Shown here: positions 1,579 through 47,723 of the stretch, one piece after another
Numbering within the stretch: the stretch's first letter is position 1
Layout: the number at the start of each line of letters is the position of its first letter
NCBI GenBank assembly: GCA_016176605.1
Contig: JACOWW010000005.1
Span: 127-64,126 of the forward strand
DNA from: Candidatus Saccharimonadota bacterium
Lineage (GTDB): Bacteria; Patescibacteriota; Saccharimonadia; Saccharimonadales; UBA10212
Reading direction: 5' to 3'
DNA length: 64,000 bases
Notes under the pieces: generated by a model
Seen by the model: only the letters and a program-made list of their open reading frames with translations
Told to the model about the DNA's origin: nothing
The model's database searches: none
Made by a program: the position numbers and the translations under genes

Positions 1579-5067
<3,489 letters not shown>

Positions 5068-6842: not shown

Positions 6843-7016
6843 TTTAACCTCCACATATTTCTAGATAAATTATACCCCGTAGTGAGCCTCCGCGACAATC
6901 CGTTTTTAGCCGAATATTTTGAAAAGTAAGTGAAGGTCAACTACGAAGTTATACACTGGCTGTGTGATAGGTTGAACCTATCACAAGGCAAAGAGATACT
7001 GAAGGAGCGATGCTGT

Positions 7017-8207
7017 ATGATGTCAAAGGAGATGAAATTCAAAAAAATAGCCTTAGTTGTAGCTGTACTTTTCCCGCTAGCATCCGTTTATCAATACAGC
7101 CGGCCGGTGCCGGCGGTCCAGCCGCAGACCAATTTCGCTCAGCCCAAAACCAGTTCAGCTGTGGCCTTGCCGTGGCCGACTTATGGTCAAGCGGCCATTG
7201 GCGCGGTTGACTATGGCGTTTTTGCCACTCATGGCGAGCAAAAACCGGTACCAATTGCTTCAATTACTAAGATAGTCACGGCACTGGCCGTGCTAAAGCA
7301 AAAACCGCTGAAGCTGGATGAAAAAGGACCGAACATCACGATCACTGATGAAGACGTCGCCATTTACGATGAATTTTATTCGCAGGGCGGTTCTGTGACG
7401 CCTATTACTAAAGGTTCGCAAATCAGTGAATATGACGGTCTGCAATCAATGCTGATACCTTCATCAAACAATATGGCTACCACCGTGGCAAAGTGGGCTT
7501 TTGGCTCGGTAGACAACTATGTTAAATATGCCAACCAAATGCTTGCCGATCTGGGTTTTGCGCAAACACATGTGGAAGAAGCCAGCGGATTTTCCGCCAG
7601 TTCCGCCAGCACGGCAACTGAACTCATAAAACTGGGTGAGTTAGCTCTTGCAAATGAAGTAGTCGCCGATATCGTCAAGAAAGCCAGCGCTAACCTGCCG
7701 GTAGCCGGCGAAGTCAGAAACATCAATACACTGGTTGGCACTGAAGGAGTAATTGGGATAAAAACCGGCAATACAGAGGCAGCCGGCGGCTGTTTATTGT
7801 TTGCTGCAAAGCATGATATCGACGGCAAAACAATAACGATCATTGGGGTAGTTTTAGGCGCGCCGACCCGGGCCACGGCGATTGCCGATTCCAAGACGCT
7901 GCTGCAATCAGTTGATAAAGCCTTCCAAGCTGTTACGGTTGTCAAAAAAGGCCAGGTAGTCGGCCATTACGAGGCGCCGTGGGGCGCTAAAGCTGAGGCC
8001 GTGGCGAAAGAAGATTTAACTTTGCTTGTTTGGCGCGGAACCGAGCTGAAAACAGATGTGAAACTGAATCAGATTGAAGCTTCTGCCAACACCAACTCTG
8101 ATATCGGGTCGGTTACAGCCACGGCCGGCCAAAAAACCTCAAACGTGCCCGTAATTCTTAAAGATAAACTATCCAGACCATCAGTAGGCTGGCGCATTTT
8201 TAGATAG
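7017..8207 (+). CDS. D-alanyl-D-alanine carboxypeptidase (serine peptidase S11)
   Basis: It has SxxK ('SITK'), SxN ('SSNN') and KTG ('KTGNT') motifs and an N-terminal TM or signal segment. The start was set at ATG 7017 after a GAAGGAG SD; the listed GTG at 6930 has none. Confidence 0.85.
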   Translation: MMSKEMKFKKIALVVAVLFPLASVYQYSRPVPAVQPQTNFAQPKTSSAVALPWPTYGQAAIGAVDYGVFATHGEQKPVPIASITKIVTALAVLKQKPLKLDEKGPNITITDEDVAIYDEFYSQGGSVTPITKGSQISEYDGLQSMLIPSSNNMATTVAKWAFGSVDNYVKYANQMLADLGFAQTHVEEASGFSASSASTATELIKLGELALANEVVADIVKKASANLPVAGEVRNINTLVGTEGVIGIKTGNTEAAGGCLLFAAKHDIDGKTITIIGVVLGAPTRATAIADSKTLLQSVDKAFQAVTVVKKGQVVGHYEAPWGAKAEAVAKEDLTLLVWRGTELKTDVKLNQIEASANTNSDIGSVTATAGQKTSNVPVILKDKLSRPSVGWRIFR

Positions 8208-23149: not shown

Positions 23150-26041
23150 CTACCCAACTATTAACACTTTCTTTAAAAATTGTCCAGTATAACTGACTCT
23201 GTTTTTGGCGACCTTTTCGGGTGTGCCTTGCGCAATGATTCGGCCGCCCCCGTCGCCACCTTCTGGGCCCATATCTATAATATGGTCGGCCGATTTTATG
23301 ACGTCAAGGTTATGCTCGATAACAATCATGCTGTTGCCGGCATCAACCAGCGCCTGTAGCACATGCAGTAATTTATCAACATCGGCCATGTGCAGGCCGG
23401 TAGTCGGTTCATCCAGAATATATAACGTGCGGCCGGTTGGCCGGCGTGACAACTCAGTGGCCAGCTTTACACGTTGGGCTTCACCACCAGACAAAGTTGT
23501 GGCTGGTTGGCCGAGAGTTATATAACCCAGGCCGACATCGACCAATGTTTGCAGTTTGCGGGCAATGCTTGGAATATTGGCAAAAAATTCTAGGGCTTGT
23601 TCGCAGGTCATTTCTAACACGTCGCTGATGGTCTTGCCTTTATAATGAATCTCCAGGGCTTCGCGATTATAGCGCTTGCCGCGGCAAACTTCACAAGTTA
23701 CATAAACGTCCGGCAAAAAATGCATTTCGATTTTAATGACCCCATCGCCAGAGCAGTTTTCACAGCGTCCACCCTTAACATTGAAGCTGAAACGCCCTGG
23801 TCTGTAACCCCGAATTTTAGCTTCCGGCGACTGCGCAAAAAGTTCACGAATAGGAGTAAAAACGCCAGTATAGGTCGCCGGATTGGACCGCGGCGTACGG
23901 CCAATTGGCGATTGGTCAATAACAATAGCTTTGTCCAGTTGTTTAATGCCTTCTATGTCATCGTGCCGGCCGGGCACCGTTTGGGCGCGCATCAGGCGGG
24001 CCGAAAGTTCACGTGCTAAAATATCGTTTATTAAACTCGATTTGCCCGATCCACTAACTCCGCTAACCACTATCAGTTGACCCAATGGAATGTCAACGTT
24101 GATATTTTTAAGGTTATTTTCACGGGCGCCTTTAATAACCAGTTTTTTGCCGTTGGCCGGCCGGCGCTGGCTTGGCGTCTTAATCCTAAAGTCGCCTCGC
24201 AGGAACTGTGCGGTTACGCTATTTTTGGCTTTGGCTACTTGGATCGGAGTACCGGTGGCTACTATTTCGCCGCCGTGTATACCGGCGCCGGGGCCTATGT
24301 CTACCAAAAAGTCAGCGCTTCTAATGGTTTCTTCGTCATGTTCAACGACAATGACCGTGTTGCCAAGATCGCGCAGCCTTTCCAGTGTATTTAGCAAACG
24401 TTTGTTGTCGCGCTGGTGCAGGCCAATGCTCGGTTCGTCCAGTACGTAAAGCACGCCTTGCAACCCTGAACCTATTTGTGTTGCCAGACGTATACGCTGG
24501 GCTTCGCCGCCGGCTAGGCTAACGGCACTTCTTGCCAGAGCCAAATAATTAAGGCCGACGTCCTGCAAGAATTTCAGGCGGGCATTGATCTCTTTTAAAA
24601 TTTGATGGGCAATCTGGGTCTGGGTGCTATCCAATTTAACATTTTTAAAAAAATCAGCGGCTTTATCAATGTCCAGCTCACAAATATCCATAATGTTTTT
24701 GCCGACAACTGTAATTGCTAAAACTTCGGGCTTCAAGCGTTTGCCGCCGCAGACATGGCAGGGCCGCTCCTGCATGTATTTTTCAATGTCACGGCGGATA
24801 AAATCGCTTTCGGTTTCTTTGTGCCGGCGCTCGAGATTCGGGATAACTCCTTCATAAGTCGTATTAAACGAGCGGCCGATGCCTAGAGAAATTCGGTAAG
24901 TTTCGCTGCCGGTGCCATAAAGGATTTTATCAAGCTGCGGCTTAGTCAGTTCAGCAGTTGGCACATGCAAGCTAAAACGGTACCGCTCAGCCACGGCTTG
25001 GAGTTTTTTCATCCACCAGGCATCAGTGTTAATACGGTTAAAGGGCCGAATAGCGCCTTCGGCAATCGTCAGCCGGCCGTTAGGGATGACAAGTTCTGGA
25101 TCTACCTCGAGCCGGTTGCCCAGTCCCGTACAAACGGGGCAAGCGCCGTGCGGCGAGTTAAAACTAAAGGTCCGCGGTTCCAACTCCGGAATAGCCACAT
25201 CTGGGTGATCGACACAGGCATACTTCAACGAATAGTGAAACTCCTTGTGAAAGGTCCGTCCTTTCACAGCTTCCGTATAAATTAGGGTATTGCCATTAGC
25301 GTGAAAGGACGGACCTTTCACATCGTCGATGGCTAGAACGCTTAGCAAGCCGTCGGCCAAGTCCAATGCTTGTTCGACGCTCTGGGCTAGCCGTGTGCGG
25401 CTGGCTTCGTTATTGACCAAACGATCAACCACAATATCGATTTTATGTTTGAAGTTCTTGTCCAACTGCGGAAATTCATCAAGCGCGTAAATCACGCCAT
25501 CGACCCGGGCGCGGGCAAAGCCGGCGCGTTGGAATTGTTCGGGAATATGTTCGAAGGCGCCTTTTTTATCAATAACAATCGGCGCCAGCACAATAATTTT
25601 GGTATTCTTAGTCGCTTCAACTACCTGGTCTAAAATAGCGTTTGAGGTTTGACGGGTGACCGGCTGGCCACAGATAGGGCAGTGTGGGATACCAACGCGC
25701 GCAAAAAGCAGGCGTAGATAATCATAAATTTCGGTGACAGTTGCCACCGTACTGCGCGGGTTACGGCTGGTGGATTTTTGGTCGATGCTAATGGCTGGCG
25801 AAAGCCCATCAATCTGGTCGACATCGGGCTTTTCCATGATGCCTAAGAACTGGCGAGCATAAGCGCTGAGTGACTCCACGTAGCGACGTTGGCCTTCAGC
25901 GTAAATAGTATCAAAGGCCAAAGAAGATTTACCGGAGCCAGAAAGACCAGTTATAACCACCAACTTCTCGCGCGGAATCTCCAAGCTAATATTCTTGAGA
26001 TTATGTTCCCTCGCACCAACAACTTTAATCACATTACTCAT
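23150..26041 (-). CDS. uvrA: Excinuclease ABC subunit A
   Basis: It has two Walker A sites ('GLSGSGKSS', 'GVSGSGKSS'), two ABC signatures and zinc modules ('CPICGQ', 'CHVCGGKR', 'CENCSGDG...CEVCRGKR'). Confidence 0.97.
25247..25321. repeat. 75-nt composite insertion in uvrA: two inverted copies of the 21-nt hairpin motif flanking 33 nt
   Basis: GTGAAAGGTCCGTCCTTTCAC lies at 25247-25267 and its complement form GTGAAAGGACGGACCTTTCAC at 25301-25321. The unit encodes '[25 protein letters not shown]'. Confidence 0.8.
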
Positions 26042-30003: not shown

Positions 30004-31125
30004 CTATTGATAAATGTAATTTTGGAAGCGAGTAATAGGTGTCCAGTCACTAAAGCCAACCCGGCCCCAACCGGCCAGGCCGTTCATATCGGAATACTTA
30101 ATCATCGTGCCGTCAGCTGAAACCTCGCTAACAACCCCTACATGCCCTAGCCAGCCGGCGTTGGTTTGGCCGATAGCACCGGGACGTGGAGTAGTACTGA
30201 CAGTCCAGCCGGAAGCTGCCGCATAATTATCCCATGTGTTGGCATTGCCCCAGTTGTTGGGCACGGTAACCTTGCCAGCCACGTAGTAAGTACAGTAGCC
30301 GAAGTCATAACCATTGCCGCCATAACTGGCCACGAATACTCCATAGGTTAAAGGCGCGGATTTACTGGCGTTAGGAATTATTATTTGTTCGCCAAGTTTC
30401 AAGCCATTTATTTCAGCATCGTTATAGGTAATGATTTGGCTCTCATCGGCGCGGTATTTGGTGGCTAAAGCGGCTGGCGTATCACCGGCCTTGACCGTAT
30501 AGACTATCCCGTTAACCGGCGGTATCGATAATTTGGTGCCAGCCGCAATGGCATTGCCCGACAGGTTATTGGACCAACGGACGCTGTCGGCACTAATGCC
30601 GTATTTATCGGCGATTTTCGCGATAGTATCTCCAGCTTGGGCGGTGTACTGTATGATGCCTTGCTTGGACTTTTGGACAGTTGGCACAATCTGCGGTTTG
30701 GCTAAAATAGTGGTATCGCTGGGGGTCATAGCCAGTAAGATACTGTCGCTGTCGGCTTGGCTGCGGACGGCTTTTATCTCAGGCAGTTGGGCCATCTGGG
30801 CCGCAGTCAGGGCGATTTGGGCGGCCGATAACTGGTCCAGCGGGCTTTGTTGGGCGCTGGCCGTCGCGCTCACACTATTAACCGTACCAGTGCGGATGGT
30901 CTGGCTGGCCGAGCGATTGCTAATAATAAAAGTGCCAATTCCCAAAAGCAGTACCAAGTTACCAACGACCAGCCCCCAGCGGGTCACGCGCCGCTTGGAT
31001 TTTTTATCAAGCCTGTCGTATCTTTGTTTGGGCAACGAGGAAATAGAGTCCAGCGAAGGGACCTTTCGACTAATATCGGAAAGTTTGATCTGGGGTTTCT
31101 TAAGCTGCGGCCTAGAAATATTCAT
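30004..31125 (-). CDS. Peptidoglycan hydrolase with two LysM domains and a C-terminal CHAP domain
   Basis: It has LysM repeats ('YTAQAGDTIAKIADKYGI', 'YTVKAGDTPAALATKY'), a CHAP-like 'GYCTYYVAG...WGNANTW...GHVGVV' and an N-terminal TM anchor. Confidence 0.85.
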   Translation of the reverse strand: MNISRPQLKKPQIKLSDISRKVPSLDSISSLPKQRYDRLDKKSKRRVTRWGLVVGNLVLLLGIGTFIISNRSASQTIRTGTVNSVSATASAQQSPLDQLSAAQIALTAAQMAQLPEIKAVRSQADSDSILLAMTPSDTTILAKPQIVPTVQKSKQGIIQYTAQAGDTIAKIADKYGISADSVRWSNNLSGNAIAAGTKLSIPPVNGIVYTVKAGDTPAALATKYRADESQIITYNDAEINGLKLGEQIIIPNASKSAPLTYGVFVASYGGNGYDFGYCTYYVAGKVTVPNNWGNANTWDNYAAASGWTVSTTPRPGAIGQTNAGWLGHVGVVSEVSADGTMIKYSDMNGLAGWGRVGFSDWTPITRFQNYIYQ

Positions 31126-31244
31126 CCTAAAAATACGAAAGGTAAGCTAGAGGCAGGACAAAGACCTTTCGTAGGTATTATTATATCAATCCACTCCGCC
31201 AATAGGCGCCTCTGACCACTGTTTGTGTATCCCTTGACAAAGTC

Positions 31245-46893: not shown

Positions 46894-47723
46894 AATATTT
46901 TCCCCGTTTGCGAGGTCCGTCCTTGCAAACCAAGGAGGTTGATAGCATTACGGGTGGTATAACTGGCCAGCTCATTTATATCTTCGCCGCGCAGCTCGGC
47001 TAGAAATTTAGCGATATCGAATATATGTTTTGGCTCGCAGATTTGGCCGCGGTATAGTTTGGGCGCCAAAAAAGGCGCGTCGGTTTCTAATAATAAGCGG
47101 TCTTTGGGCACTTTTTTGGCCACTGCCAGTTGCTCTTTATCAGTTGTAAAAGTCATGATGCCATTGAGTGCCACATAAAGCCCGCGGCTCAAAGATTGAT
47201 CCAGCTCTGTTTGGCTGGCGCTGAAGCTATGGACAACGCCGCGCACTCCTTGATAAGAGTCTATAATCTCAAAAAACTTAGCCCAAGCCTGCCCAGCACC
47301 AGACTTGTCTTGGTGCTGGGCATCGCGAATATGGAAGATATACGGCAAGCCGCTATCTAAGCTTGTTTCTATCTGGAGCCTAAATAGTTTTTCTTGGTCG
47401 GCTTTTGGTGAGTAGTTTTTATAAAAATCCAGGCCAATTTCTCCAACTGCCACAACCTTTTTACTACCAGACAACATTTTTCCCATTTCCAGGGTGCCAC
47501 CCTGGAAATTAAAGTCTTTGGCTTCGTGCGGGTGGACGCCGACTGTCGCCCAGATATTTTTATACTTATCGGCGTATTCAGTGGCTTTTTGGCTGTCGGA
47601 TACGGTTGTGCCGACGCAGATGAGCCGAGTTACGCCCACGTCATTAGCATCTTTGATGACTTGCTCGATATTGCCGGCGAGCTTATCAAATTGTAGGTGG
47701 CAGTGCGTATCTACGAATTCCAT
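46890..47723 (-). CDS. tatD: TatD-family metal-dependent DNase/hydrolase
   Basis: It has 'VDTHCHL', 'GEIGLD', 'HSF' and 'LLLETDAP' motifs. Confidence 0.9.
   Translation of the reverse strand: MEFVDTHCHLQFDKLAGNIEQVIKDANDVGVTRLICVGTTVSDSQKATEYADKYKNIWATVGVHPHEAKDFNFQGGTLEMGKMLSGSKKVVAVGEIGLDFYKNYSPKADQEKLFRLQIETSLDSGLPYIFHIRDAQHQDKSGAGQAWAKFFEIIDSYQGVRGVVHSFSASQTELDQSLSRGLYVALNGIMTFTTDKEQLAVAKKVPKDRLLLETDAPFLAPKLYRGQICEPKHIFDIAKFLAELRGEDINELASYTTRNAINLLGLQGRTSQTGKIL

Follow-up and report, generated by a model that had tools for sequence, protein, structure and literature searches.

Systems that pair repetitive extragenic palindromes (REPs) with REP-associated tyrosine transposases (RAYTs) have, to our knowledge, hardly been studied outside Proteobacteria with large genomes, in which the repeats lie between genes. 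REPs inside genes, single or as dimers and in frame, have been described in Opitutus terrae, Thioalkalivibrio, Thauera, and Rickettsia conorii (Di Nocera et al. 2013, PMC3733652). Many of these intragenic REPs sit in uvrA, where O. terrae and Thioalkalivibrio carry double inserts, or in the genes for DNA polymerase I and DNA ligase, in recBCD, and in tRNA modification genes; the dimers encode about 20 to 30 residues, and some Rickettsia palindromic elements (RPEs) have been equated with REP families (PMC3733652). Here, we analyzed a stretch of 64,000 nucleotides (the window) of a Candidatus Saccharimonadota bacterium (assembly GCA_016176605.1, contig JACOWW010000005.1, positions 127 to 64,126), in which a 21-nt palindrome occurs twice in uvrA and once in ligA. 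It is very likely that this 21-mer is the REP of a REP-RAYT system widespread in Saccharimonadales and that the RAYT cassette was lost from this genome, leaving the copies orphaned.

On the plus strand, GTGAAAGGTCCGTCCTTTCAC occupies positions 25247 to 25267 and its reverse complement, GTGAAAGGACGGACCTTTCAC, positions 25301 to 25321, with a gap of 33 nt between them, and the complement form is found again at 3642 to 3662, inside ligA. The initial annotation of the window had reported this pair, its total length of 25 codons, and the ligA copy, and both the sequence and the coordinates proved accurate. Dinucleotide shuffles of the window gave no match to the 21-mer (expected number, 0.00). The 21-mer GTGAAAGGTCCGTCCTTTCAC consists of an 8-bp stem and a 5-nt loop, and nearly constant flanking T and A residues extend it to a 23-nt palindrome with a 9-bp stem and the same 5-nt loop. 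Folded as DNA, the 23-mer has a free energy of -8.2 kcal/mol (z = -6.5), and it is thus a short repeated palindrome with a stable hairpin, as expected of a REP. The whole 75-nt doublet in uvrA pairs as one hairpin (-26 kcal/mol; z = -9.4). The foot of the hairpin is T-GTGA in all variants (TGTGA foot).

In the 728-kb genome, assembled in seven contigs, the 21-mer occurs eight times exactly and never with one or two mismatches. All eight lie inside long open reading frames (ORFs), namely, uvrA (two copies), ligA, polA, mpg (encoding a 3-methyladenine glycosylase), tsaD, rsmA, and a methyltransferase gene, which agrees with the earlier description of an in-frame palindromic repeat residing in essential or housekeeping genes and dispersed in the genome. 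Seven copies are read in phase 0, giving VKGPSFH or VKGRTFH depending on the orientation, and the rsmA copy is read in phase 1 as CERSVLS; the third phase, which reads TGA, is used by none of the eight. A second sub-family, GTGATAGGTT[C/G]AACCTATCAC, differs from the 21-mer in its loop and in the stem, where T:A replaces A:T as a compensated change, and its four copies in the genome are all located between genes. The copy of this sub-family in the window (Table 1) is of the type that flanks the RAYT gene of two relatives, G002 and G023.

The evidence for a partner enzyme comes from a scan of public collections with the 21-mer, three loop positions being left free. The scan yielded 11 loci in GTDB genomes, 8 of them in Saccharibacteria, and 25 loci in metagenome contigs; no copies were found in viral contigs, and there is thus no sign of a phage origin. 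In metagenome contigs L050, L062, L064, and L065, the exact 21-mer brackets an ORF whose product starts with MPSRN.IKEF.P.SYYHVYNRGVEKR, and the cassette is laid out as REP, 39 to 53 nt, REP, the ORF from ATG to stop, and REP. The product of 208 amino acids contains a Y1_Tnp domain (Pfam PF01797; 42.6 bits, cutoff 23), matches the NCBIfam family REP_Tyr_transpos (E = 1.6e-10), and carries the RAYT motifs YHVYNRG, HFH, and Y-x-x-x-N-P. Residues H77 and H79 of the HUH motif, as well as Y137, N141, and P142, are invariant in 30 homologues. The last three fit Y---NP, the catalytic-tyrosine signature of class-2 TnpA-Y1 proteins (PMC6006769), so that the HUH motif and the class-2 signature occur in the same protein. 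As a single sequence, the RAYT had no match in the PDB at E <= 1, and an AlphaFold2 model built from a 4-sequence alignment (mean pLDDT, 43.6) was too poor for comparing folds.

In L064, the RAYT gene takes its stop codon from the downstream REP (positions 8076 to 8106; ..GAC TTG TGA AAG..). The upstream REP adjoins the ATG and shares the frame of upstream start codons, and this RAYT may therefore be translated through its own hairpin.

Homologues of the RAYT are present in 116 of the 401 genomes of the order that were sampled, with up to seven per genome. Paralogues within one genome are only 45 to 55% identical to the query, and the closest homologues (L075 to L084) show 60 to 68% identity. 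At 14 loci (L050, L062, L064, L065, and L075 to L084), the gene occupies the same place between a response-regulator gene and murD, although MurD identity falls to ~45%; like the enzyme gene of other REP-RAYT systems, it is immobile at a conserved locus and is not multiplied as identical copies. A Y1/HUH gene bracketed by its own repeat was found in L050, L062, L064, and L065 and at 30 GTDB loci. Every homologue has a hairpin variant of its own (for example, GTGAGAGGTCCGTCCTCTCAC, GTGATAGGTTAAACCTATCAC, GTGAAAGGATAAACCTTTCAC, and GCGGGAGGTCCGATCTCCCGC), and the more distant paralogues carry TTTCCAAGG....CCTTGGAAA and similar hairpins. Across 10 hairpin variants, 100% of the stem cells pair and three pairs show compensatory double changes, a number reached by 0 of 500 shuffles, whereas sliding the partner columns lowers stem pairing to 35 to 69%.

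In the genome studied here, the syntenic locus is intact but empty: at C5:19655-19697, a spacer of 43 nt without any REP separates the stop codon of the response-regulator gene from the start of murD. The eight REPs are therefore best read as orphans that remained after loss of the RAYT, a loss that would be recent in this lineage.

The repeat covaries with the enzyme also at the sites inside genes. We compared the host genes with those of five relatives (G002, G023, G003, G001, and G015), calling the 21-mer of this genome type A, GTGATAGGTT[T/C]AACCTATCAC type B, and GTGATAGGTCTAACCTATCAC type B'. All of the following sites hold type A in this genome: (i) the ligA site has B' with tail repeats in G002 and B in G023, is empty in G001, has a different insert that is not of this REP family in G015, and was not recovered from G003; (ii) the tsaD site has B' (with one mismatch) in G002 and B in G023 and is empty in the other three; (iii) the methyltransferase site has B' in G002, B in G023, and GTGAGAGGTGCAACCTCTCAC in G003 and is empty in G001 and G015; (iv) the rsmA site has B' in G002 and native sequence in the other four; (v) the polA site has a decayed copy in G002 and is empty in the other four; and (vi) the uvrA site, which has type A twice in this genome, has a decayed copy in G002 and a decayed type B in G023 and is empty in G003, G001, and G015. 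The REPs beside the RAYT genes of G023 and G002 (L076 and L082) have exactly these B and B' sequences. The type flanking the genome's own RAYT gene thus fills four sites in G002 (ligA, tsaD, methyltransferase, and rsmA) and three in G023 (ligA, tsaD, and methyltransferase). For the mpg site, there was no empty-site comparison, since a homologue was absent from the five relatives searched.

The filled genomes also have their junctions in common. At tsaD, CAC is directly followed by ACTAATGCTTATCC in 3 of 3 genomes, and at ligA the REP lies between ..AT and AAR TT in 3 of 3, which points to one ancestral insertion per site and not to repeated hits. In the UvrA and LigA trees, this genome is sister to G002 within a clade that includes G023 and G001, so that the older state of these sites was probably type B, from which this lineage would have switched to type A. 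A sister species, represented by contigs Ga0209541 and Ga0209542 (81 to 88% DNA identity), has type A at the same sites together with a type-A RAYT cassette. Compared with this species, the flanks of the REPs (+-150 nt) are 77% identical, while six of the seven shared REPs are without difference and the tsaD REP has two differences.

The two host genes in the window illustrate how the inserts are accommodated. PDB matches identify them as uvrA (3ZQJ; E = 5.6e-56) and ligA (4GLX; E = 1e-41). In UvrA, the 25 codons follow ...LAIDD, just past the UvrB-binding domain and ahead of the ELEPRxFSFN segment. The UvrA proteins of 26 of 29 relatives make a tight turn here, V-[HN]-[ND]-A-D-x-K, where this protein has 25 extra residues, and Mycobacterium tuberculosis UvrA (3ZQJ) has 5 residues opposite 24 of the query. 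In LigA, the stretch from RLR to KFL comprises 6 residues in REP-free relatives and 8 in this genome, and Escherichia coli LigA (4GLX) shows a gap of 7 residues at the site. REP-derived residues at the two sites are shared only by the close relatives G002 and G023. The initial annotation had placed the extra residues in a loop, absent from most orthologues, and had taken them as specific to the lineage, and these alignments, in which unrelated lineages have no homologous residues at the same positions, bear it out on both points. Its treatment of the ligA copy as a plain insertion of 7 codons, in contrast, does not hold, given the 6 and 8 residues above.

Nor was the 75-nt stretch of uvrA spread as one unit, as had been proposed. 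The 33-nt spacer has no other copy in the genome, even with up to 8 mismatches allowed; it is kept only in uvrA of the sister species (ANGNTSIYTEA) and resembles only weakly (GCTARTG...) the spacers upstream of RAYT genes and the tails adjacent to REPs at tsaD, polA, and C5:40722. At the same uvrA codon, two relatives have a single diverged 21-nt hairpin, GTACAAGGTCAGACCTATCAC in G002, of the same genus, and GTGATAGGTTTAACCTCGCAC in G023, and the uvrA site is therefore old and was remodeled later. A perfect sub-family B hairpin is found at the same ligA codon in G023 and G002. In form, two inverted REPs with a short spacer that fold as one hairpin correspond to a REPIN (a REP doublet forming a hairpin), but a doublet with its spacer does not recur at several sites. 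With a spacer that occurs only once in the genome and a single REP at this site in relatives, the uvrA doublet is a local elaboration that is REPIN-like in form and not a dispersed unit.

Table 1. Coordinates of the REP copies in the window and of their host genes
Feature	Position in window	Strand	Description
uvrA, host gene	23150..26041	-	963 aa; PDB 3ZQJ, 2R6F, 3FPN
REP copy 1 in uvrA	25301..25321	-	Coding strand GTGAAAGGTCCGTCCTTTCAC; VKGPSFH; residues 241-247
Spacer of uvrA doublet	25268..25300	-	33 nt; single occurrence in genome
REP copy 2 in uvrA, inverted	25247..25267	-	Coding strand GTGAAAGGACGGACCTTTCAC; VKGRTFH
ligA, host gene	2121..4151	-	676 aa; NAD-dependent DNA ligase
REP copy in ligA	3642..3662	-	VKGPSFH; adenylation domain, before EVRGE motif
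Sub-family B REP GTGATAGGTTGAACCTATCAC	6964..6984	.	Compensatory A:T to T:A in stem; directly upstream of gene start

When the unique sites of the family were pooled (77 sites), 43 were in phase 0, 8 in phase 1, none in phase 2 (the TGA phase), and 26 between genes. The location is thus not extragenic, as 8 of 8 copies in this genome and 51 of the 77 pooled sites lie in long ORFs. The base preceding the REP is T in 67 of the 77 sites, and the base following it is A in 71. As a target site, only this T at -1 and A at +1 are established; the relatives are too diverged and the loops were trimmed by later deletions. A partial REP arm lies a few bases away in 13 of the 77 sites (e.g., GTGATAG-att-REP-aat-CTATCAC), suggesting insertion into, or slippage at, an existing hairpin. 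Partial arms were also seen in individual genes: uvrA of the sister species (L051/L061) has an in-frame arm, GTGAAAGGACGG-GAT, ahead of the REP, which adds VKGRD, and tsaD of L071 and L162 has GTGA[A/C]AGAT in frame before the REP. In these genes, the partial arm shares a variant base with the adjoining REP.

Several other hairpins were noted in this genome and its relatives. At 46908 to 46928 of the window, TTGCGAGGTCCGTCCTTGCAA is another 21-nt hairpin with the TCCGT loop kept and a different stem, located at the junction of two minus-strand ORFs, and it resembles the REPs beside more distant RAYT paralogues (L086 and L088). Further families of perfect 19- to 21-nt hairpins in the genome are TTCCAGGGTGCCACCCTGGAA (the commonest in our tally), TTGCAAGGCCGAGCCTTGCAA, TTACAGGGTTCAACCCTGTAA, and AAATCAGCGATCGCTGATTT; the genome contains no Y1 transposase gene. 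The same loops of argS, mnmA, tgt, tsaB, and valS hold REPs in other genomes, and argS of this genome has a decayed type-A copy. In tgt (C3, about 31100 to 31160) there is an in-frame doublet of another family, TTTAAGGGTCGTACCCTTAAA-GGG-GTTAAGGGTACGACCCTTAGA, and in valS (C3, 146656 to 146725) CTACGGGTACGACCCGTAG is followed in frame, after 32 nt, by CTACGGGTCGTACCCGTAG. At C7:40940-40979, too, another hairpin family occupies a landing pad that bears the 21-mer in relatives. The intergenic type-B REP at C5:40722-40742 is followed by ACTAATGCTTATTCC, and a nearly identical REP and flank are found in tsaD of G023 (L167; ACTAATGCTTATCC), as if the REP had been copied along with ~14 nt of its 3' flank. 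Tails like these, RCTAAWGCTTAT, come after the REP at polA and open the uvrA spacer. In the assembly itself, contig C6 ends in the reverse complement of the beginning of C1 and starts with an overlap to the end of C7, so that these contigs can be joined.

For the mechanism, we draw on what is established for E. coli TnpA-REP and IS608. By this analogy, the RAYT would bind the hairpin on single-stranded DNA, cut at its foot, approximately between T and GTG at one end and between CAC and A at the other, and rejoin the strands, and such cutting and rejoining could both seed REPs at new sites and overwrite resident ones. Since the unit is 21 nt long, its insertion into a gene leaves the reading frame intact. 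Selection would purge copies in the TGA phase and copies at intolerant positions; because the genome is almost all coding, the survivors would be those that landed where a housekeeping gene has a tolerant surface loop. The uvrA and ligA sites are old landing pads common to the relatives, with resident REPs that would have been made uniform to the RAYT type of each genome, and in uvrA a second inverted REP and the 33-nt spacer were added to give the REPIN-like doublet. The orphan copies would now be translated as 7 to 25 extra residues, which are probably neutral.

A stronger version of this scheme, which we regard as possible but unlikely, is that the REPs in uvrA, ligA, polA, tsaD, argS, mnmA, tgt, and valS form a small set of landing pads older than the genera and that a lineage acquiring a different RAYT allele at the murD locus has all of its resident REPs overwritten in place by that enzyme. 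If this is true, RAYTs would be site-specific cassette exchangers acting on coding DNA, and the recurrence of DNA repair genes, also in other phyla, might reflect a functional link to repair or replication and not mere tolerance.

A number of observations weigh against an orphaned REP-RAYT system. No Y1 transposase homologue was found in this genome by family search, local tblastn, or protein search, and the assembly is 89% complete, so that a RAYT copy elsewhere in the genome is not strictly excluded. The GTAG tetranucleotide of classical RAYT-associated REPs is absent from the hairpin foot in all variants, the NCBIfam REP_Tyr_transpos score of the RAYT (41 bits) is under the equivalog cutoff of 80, and a profile of the 30 homologues misses E. 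coli TnpA-REP (4ER8) in the PDB and gives only a weak match to ISDra2 TnpA (E = 0.09). RAYT type and MurD phylogeny disagree: in L050 and G023, the MurD proteins are 84% identical, whereas the RAYTs are 66% identical and the REP types differ. Vertical codivergence alone thus does not explain the pattern, and the RAYT cassette alleles appear to pass from one lineage to another. At ligA, rsmA, and the methyltransferase gene, the net change in length is 0 to +2 residues and not +7, and in rsmA the native sequence of the other relatives equals the REP-bearing version in length, so that additional deletions or a replacement process are needed. Finally, neither a cleavage site nor an empty-versus-filled polymorphism nor RAYT activity was observed.

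A family of selfish hairpins without a dedicated enzyme, spread by some unknown host process and kept in permissive loops, was close to what the initial annotation had in mind in likening the repeat to RPEs. The likeness in behavior stands: all eight copies here are in frame within genes, this genome has no RAYT, and among Rickettsia RPEs there are some REP-like repeats for which no transposase is known (PMC3733652). As a class, however, it is not the best one, since sister strains have a Y1/HUH transposase gene enclosed by the exact 21-mer, each orthologous RAYT has its own covarying hairpin, and the REP type of a genome tracks its RAYT, which makes an enzyme-free family highly improbable. 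We give hardly any credence to movement of the 75-nt unit as a whole by a classical (DDE) transposase, with the solo 21-mers as remnants. Its perfect 21-nt inverted ends and its folding as one hairpin (-26 kcal/mol) would suit such a unit, but its 33-nt core occurs nowhere else in the genome even with 8 mismatches, doublets are far rarer than solo perfect 21-mers, the flanks show no target-site duplication, and at this uvrA codon relatives carry one REP.

Service to the host is very unlikely as well. The hairpin or the peptide VKG[PR][ST]FH might act as a protein-binding or regulatory site in the DNA or mRNA of repair and tRNA modification genes, its uniformity being due to selection, and this would account for REPs that are 100% identical to those of the sister species while the flanks fall to 77% identity and that are still perfect in a genome without a RAYT; uvrA, polA, and ligase, moreover, carry REPs in unrelated phyla as well (PMC3733652). 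However, the same word is used in two phases, in both orientations, and also between genes, which makes a peptide function unlikely, and a conserved peptide motif was rejected on these grounds. The sequences of relatives at the same sites differ and match their own RAYT, several relatives lack the inserts altogether, and decayed copies exist in G002, in G023, and in argS of this genome. A DNA uptake sequence was rejected because there are only 1 to 16 copies per genome. The probability of an assembly or sequencing artifact is negligible, as the same inserts occur in independent assemblies from other projects (JGI metagenome contigs L051/L061 and L052/L053/L059; sister species) and none of the copies breaks the reading frame of the long conserved genes in which they lie.

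If the 21-mer is the REP of an orphaned REP-RAYT system, then this kind of system is present in a 0.7-Mb genome with almost no intergenic space, in which the repeats persist as translated 7-residue inserts in essential genes. We found no paper linking RAYTs to Saccharibacteria; from other phyla, REPs within uvrA, polA, and ligase genes had been published before, and what is added here is a new bacterial group. The filling of the same codons with a different REP type in each genome gives independent support from another phylum to the proposed in-place replacement of REPs by RAYTs, for the study of which the reading frame provides a clear readout. In practice, the inserts can lead gene calling, the alignment of orthologues, and structure prediction astray for proteins of the candidate phyla radiation (CPR), and the REP type may serve as a lineage marker.

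Among known systems, two classes of mobile element were considered and rejected. A MITE (a miniature transposable element with inverted repeats) would not fit the absence of a visible target-site duplication at the flanks and the single-copy state of the 75-nt unit, and an IS200/IS605 insertion sequence would not fit a locus that is fixed across genomes, with divergent paralogues in place of near-identical copies moving as a unit. RPEs share with this family the lasting of palindromic repeats in frame in essential genes, at surface positions. The host phylum and the length differ, RPE-1 being much longer (about 100 to 150 bp), and the Saccharibacteria family has a cognate RAYT, whereas we know of no dedicated enzyme for RPEs. 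TIRtrons/TIRYT (TnpA-Y1 subclass 2.1; PMC3733652 and PMC6006769) resemble the system in having a class-2 Y1 protein (Y---NP) with a C-terminal extension and flanking inverted repeats without GTAG, but the flanks in Saccharibacteria are short self-complementary hairpins of a dispersed family and not long terminal inverted repeats.

The pattern of the intragenic REPs of Di Nocera et al. recurs here in an unrelated phylum, with uvrA (twice), ligA, polA, mpg, tsaD, and rsmA as host genes. Those REPs belong to GTAG- and CGTC-tagged superfamilies of other phyla, whereas in Saccharibacteria the same codon positions are common to related genomes, with the REP type switched. A comparable switch has been described for Pseudomonas chlororaphis, in which REPs are conserved at orthologous positions and match in sequence the predominant RAYT of each genome (REPORTH preprint, bioRxiv 10.1101/2024.10.14.618302). 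There, the positions are those of extragenic REPINs in genomes that are <4% diverged (bioRxiv 10.1101/2024.10.14.618302), while the Saccharibacteria sites lie within coding sequence and are compared across genus-level divergence.

Classical REP-RAYT systems, or REPtrons, such as E. coli TnpA-REP with REPs and bacterial interspersed mosaic elements (BIMEs) and the REPIN-RAYT systems of Pseudomonas, share with the Saccharibacteria system a dispersed hairpin and a fixed-locus Y1/HUH gene bracketed by the same hairpins (PMC3333891, PMC3116915, and PMC8266576). Also in common are the joint change of repeat and enzyme, inverted doublets, and loss of the enzyme that leaves orphan repeats. The Saccharibacteria system differs in that (i) the GTAG tag is missing, the foot is TGTGA, and the copy number is very low (1 to 16 per genome); (ii) about two thirds of the copies are in genes and in frame and not intergenic; (iii) perfect singlets outnumber doublets, and there are up to seven RAYT paralogues per genome; and (iv) the protein is distant from E. 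coli TnpA-REP, and the system resides in a CPR bacterium whose genome measures 0.7 Mb. As three of the classical traits (the GTAG tag, the extragenic location, and the NCBIfam equivalog score) are lacking, we do not file it as a classical group 2/3 RAYT; the system of this CPR lineage nevertheless belongs to the known REP-RAYT kind.

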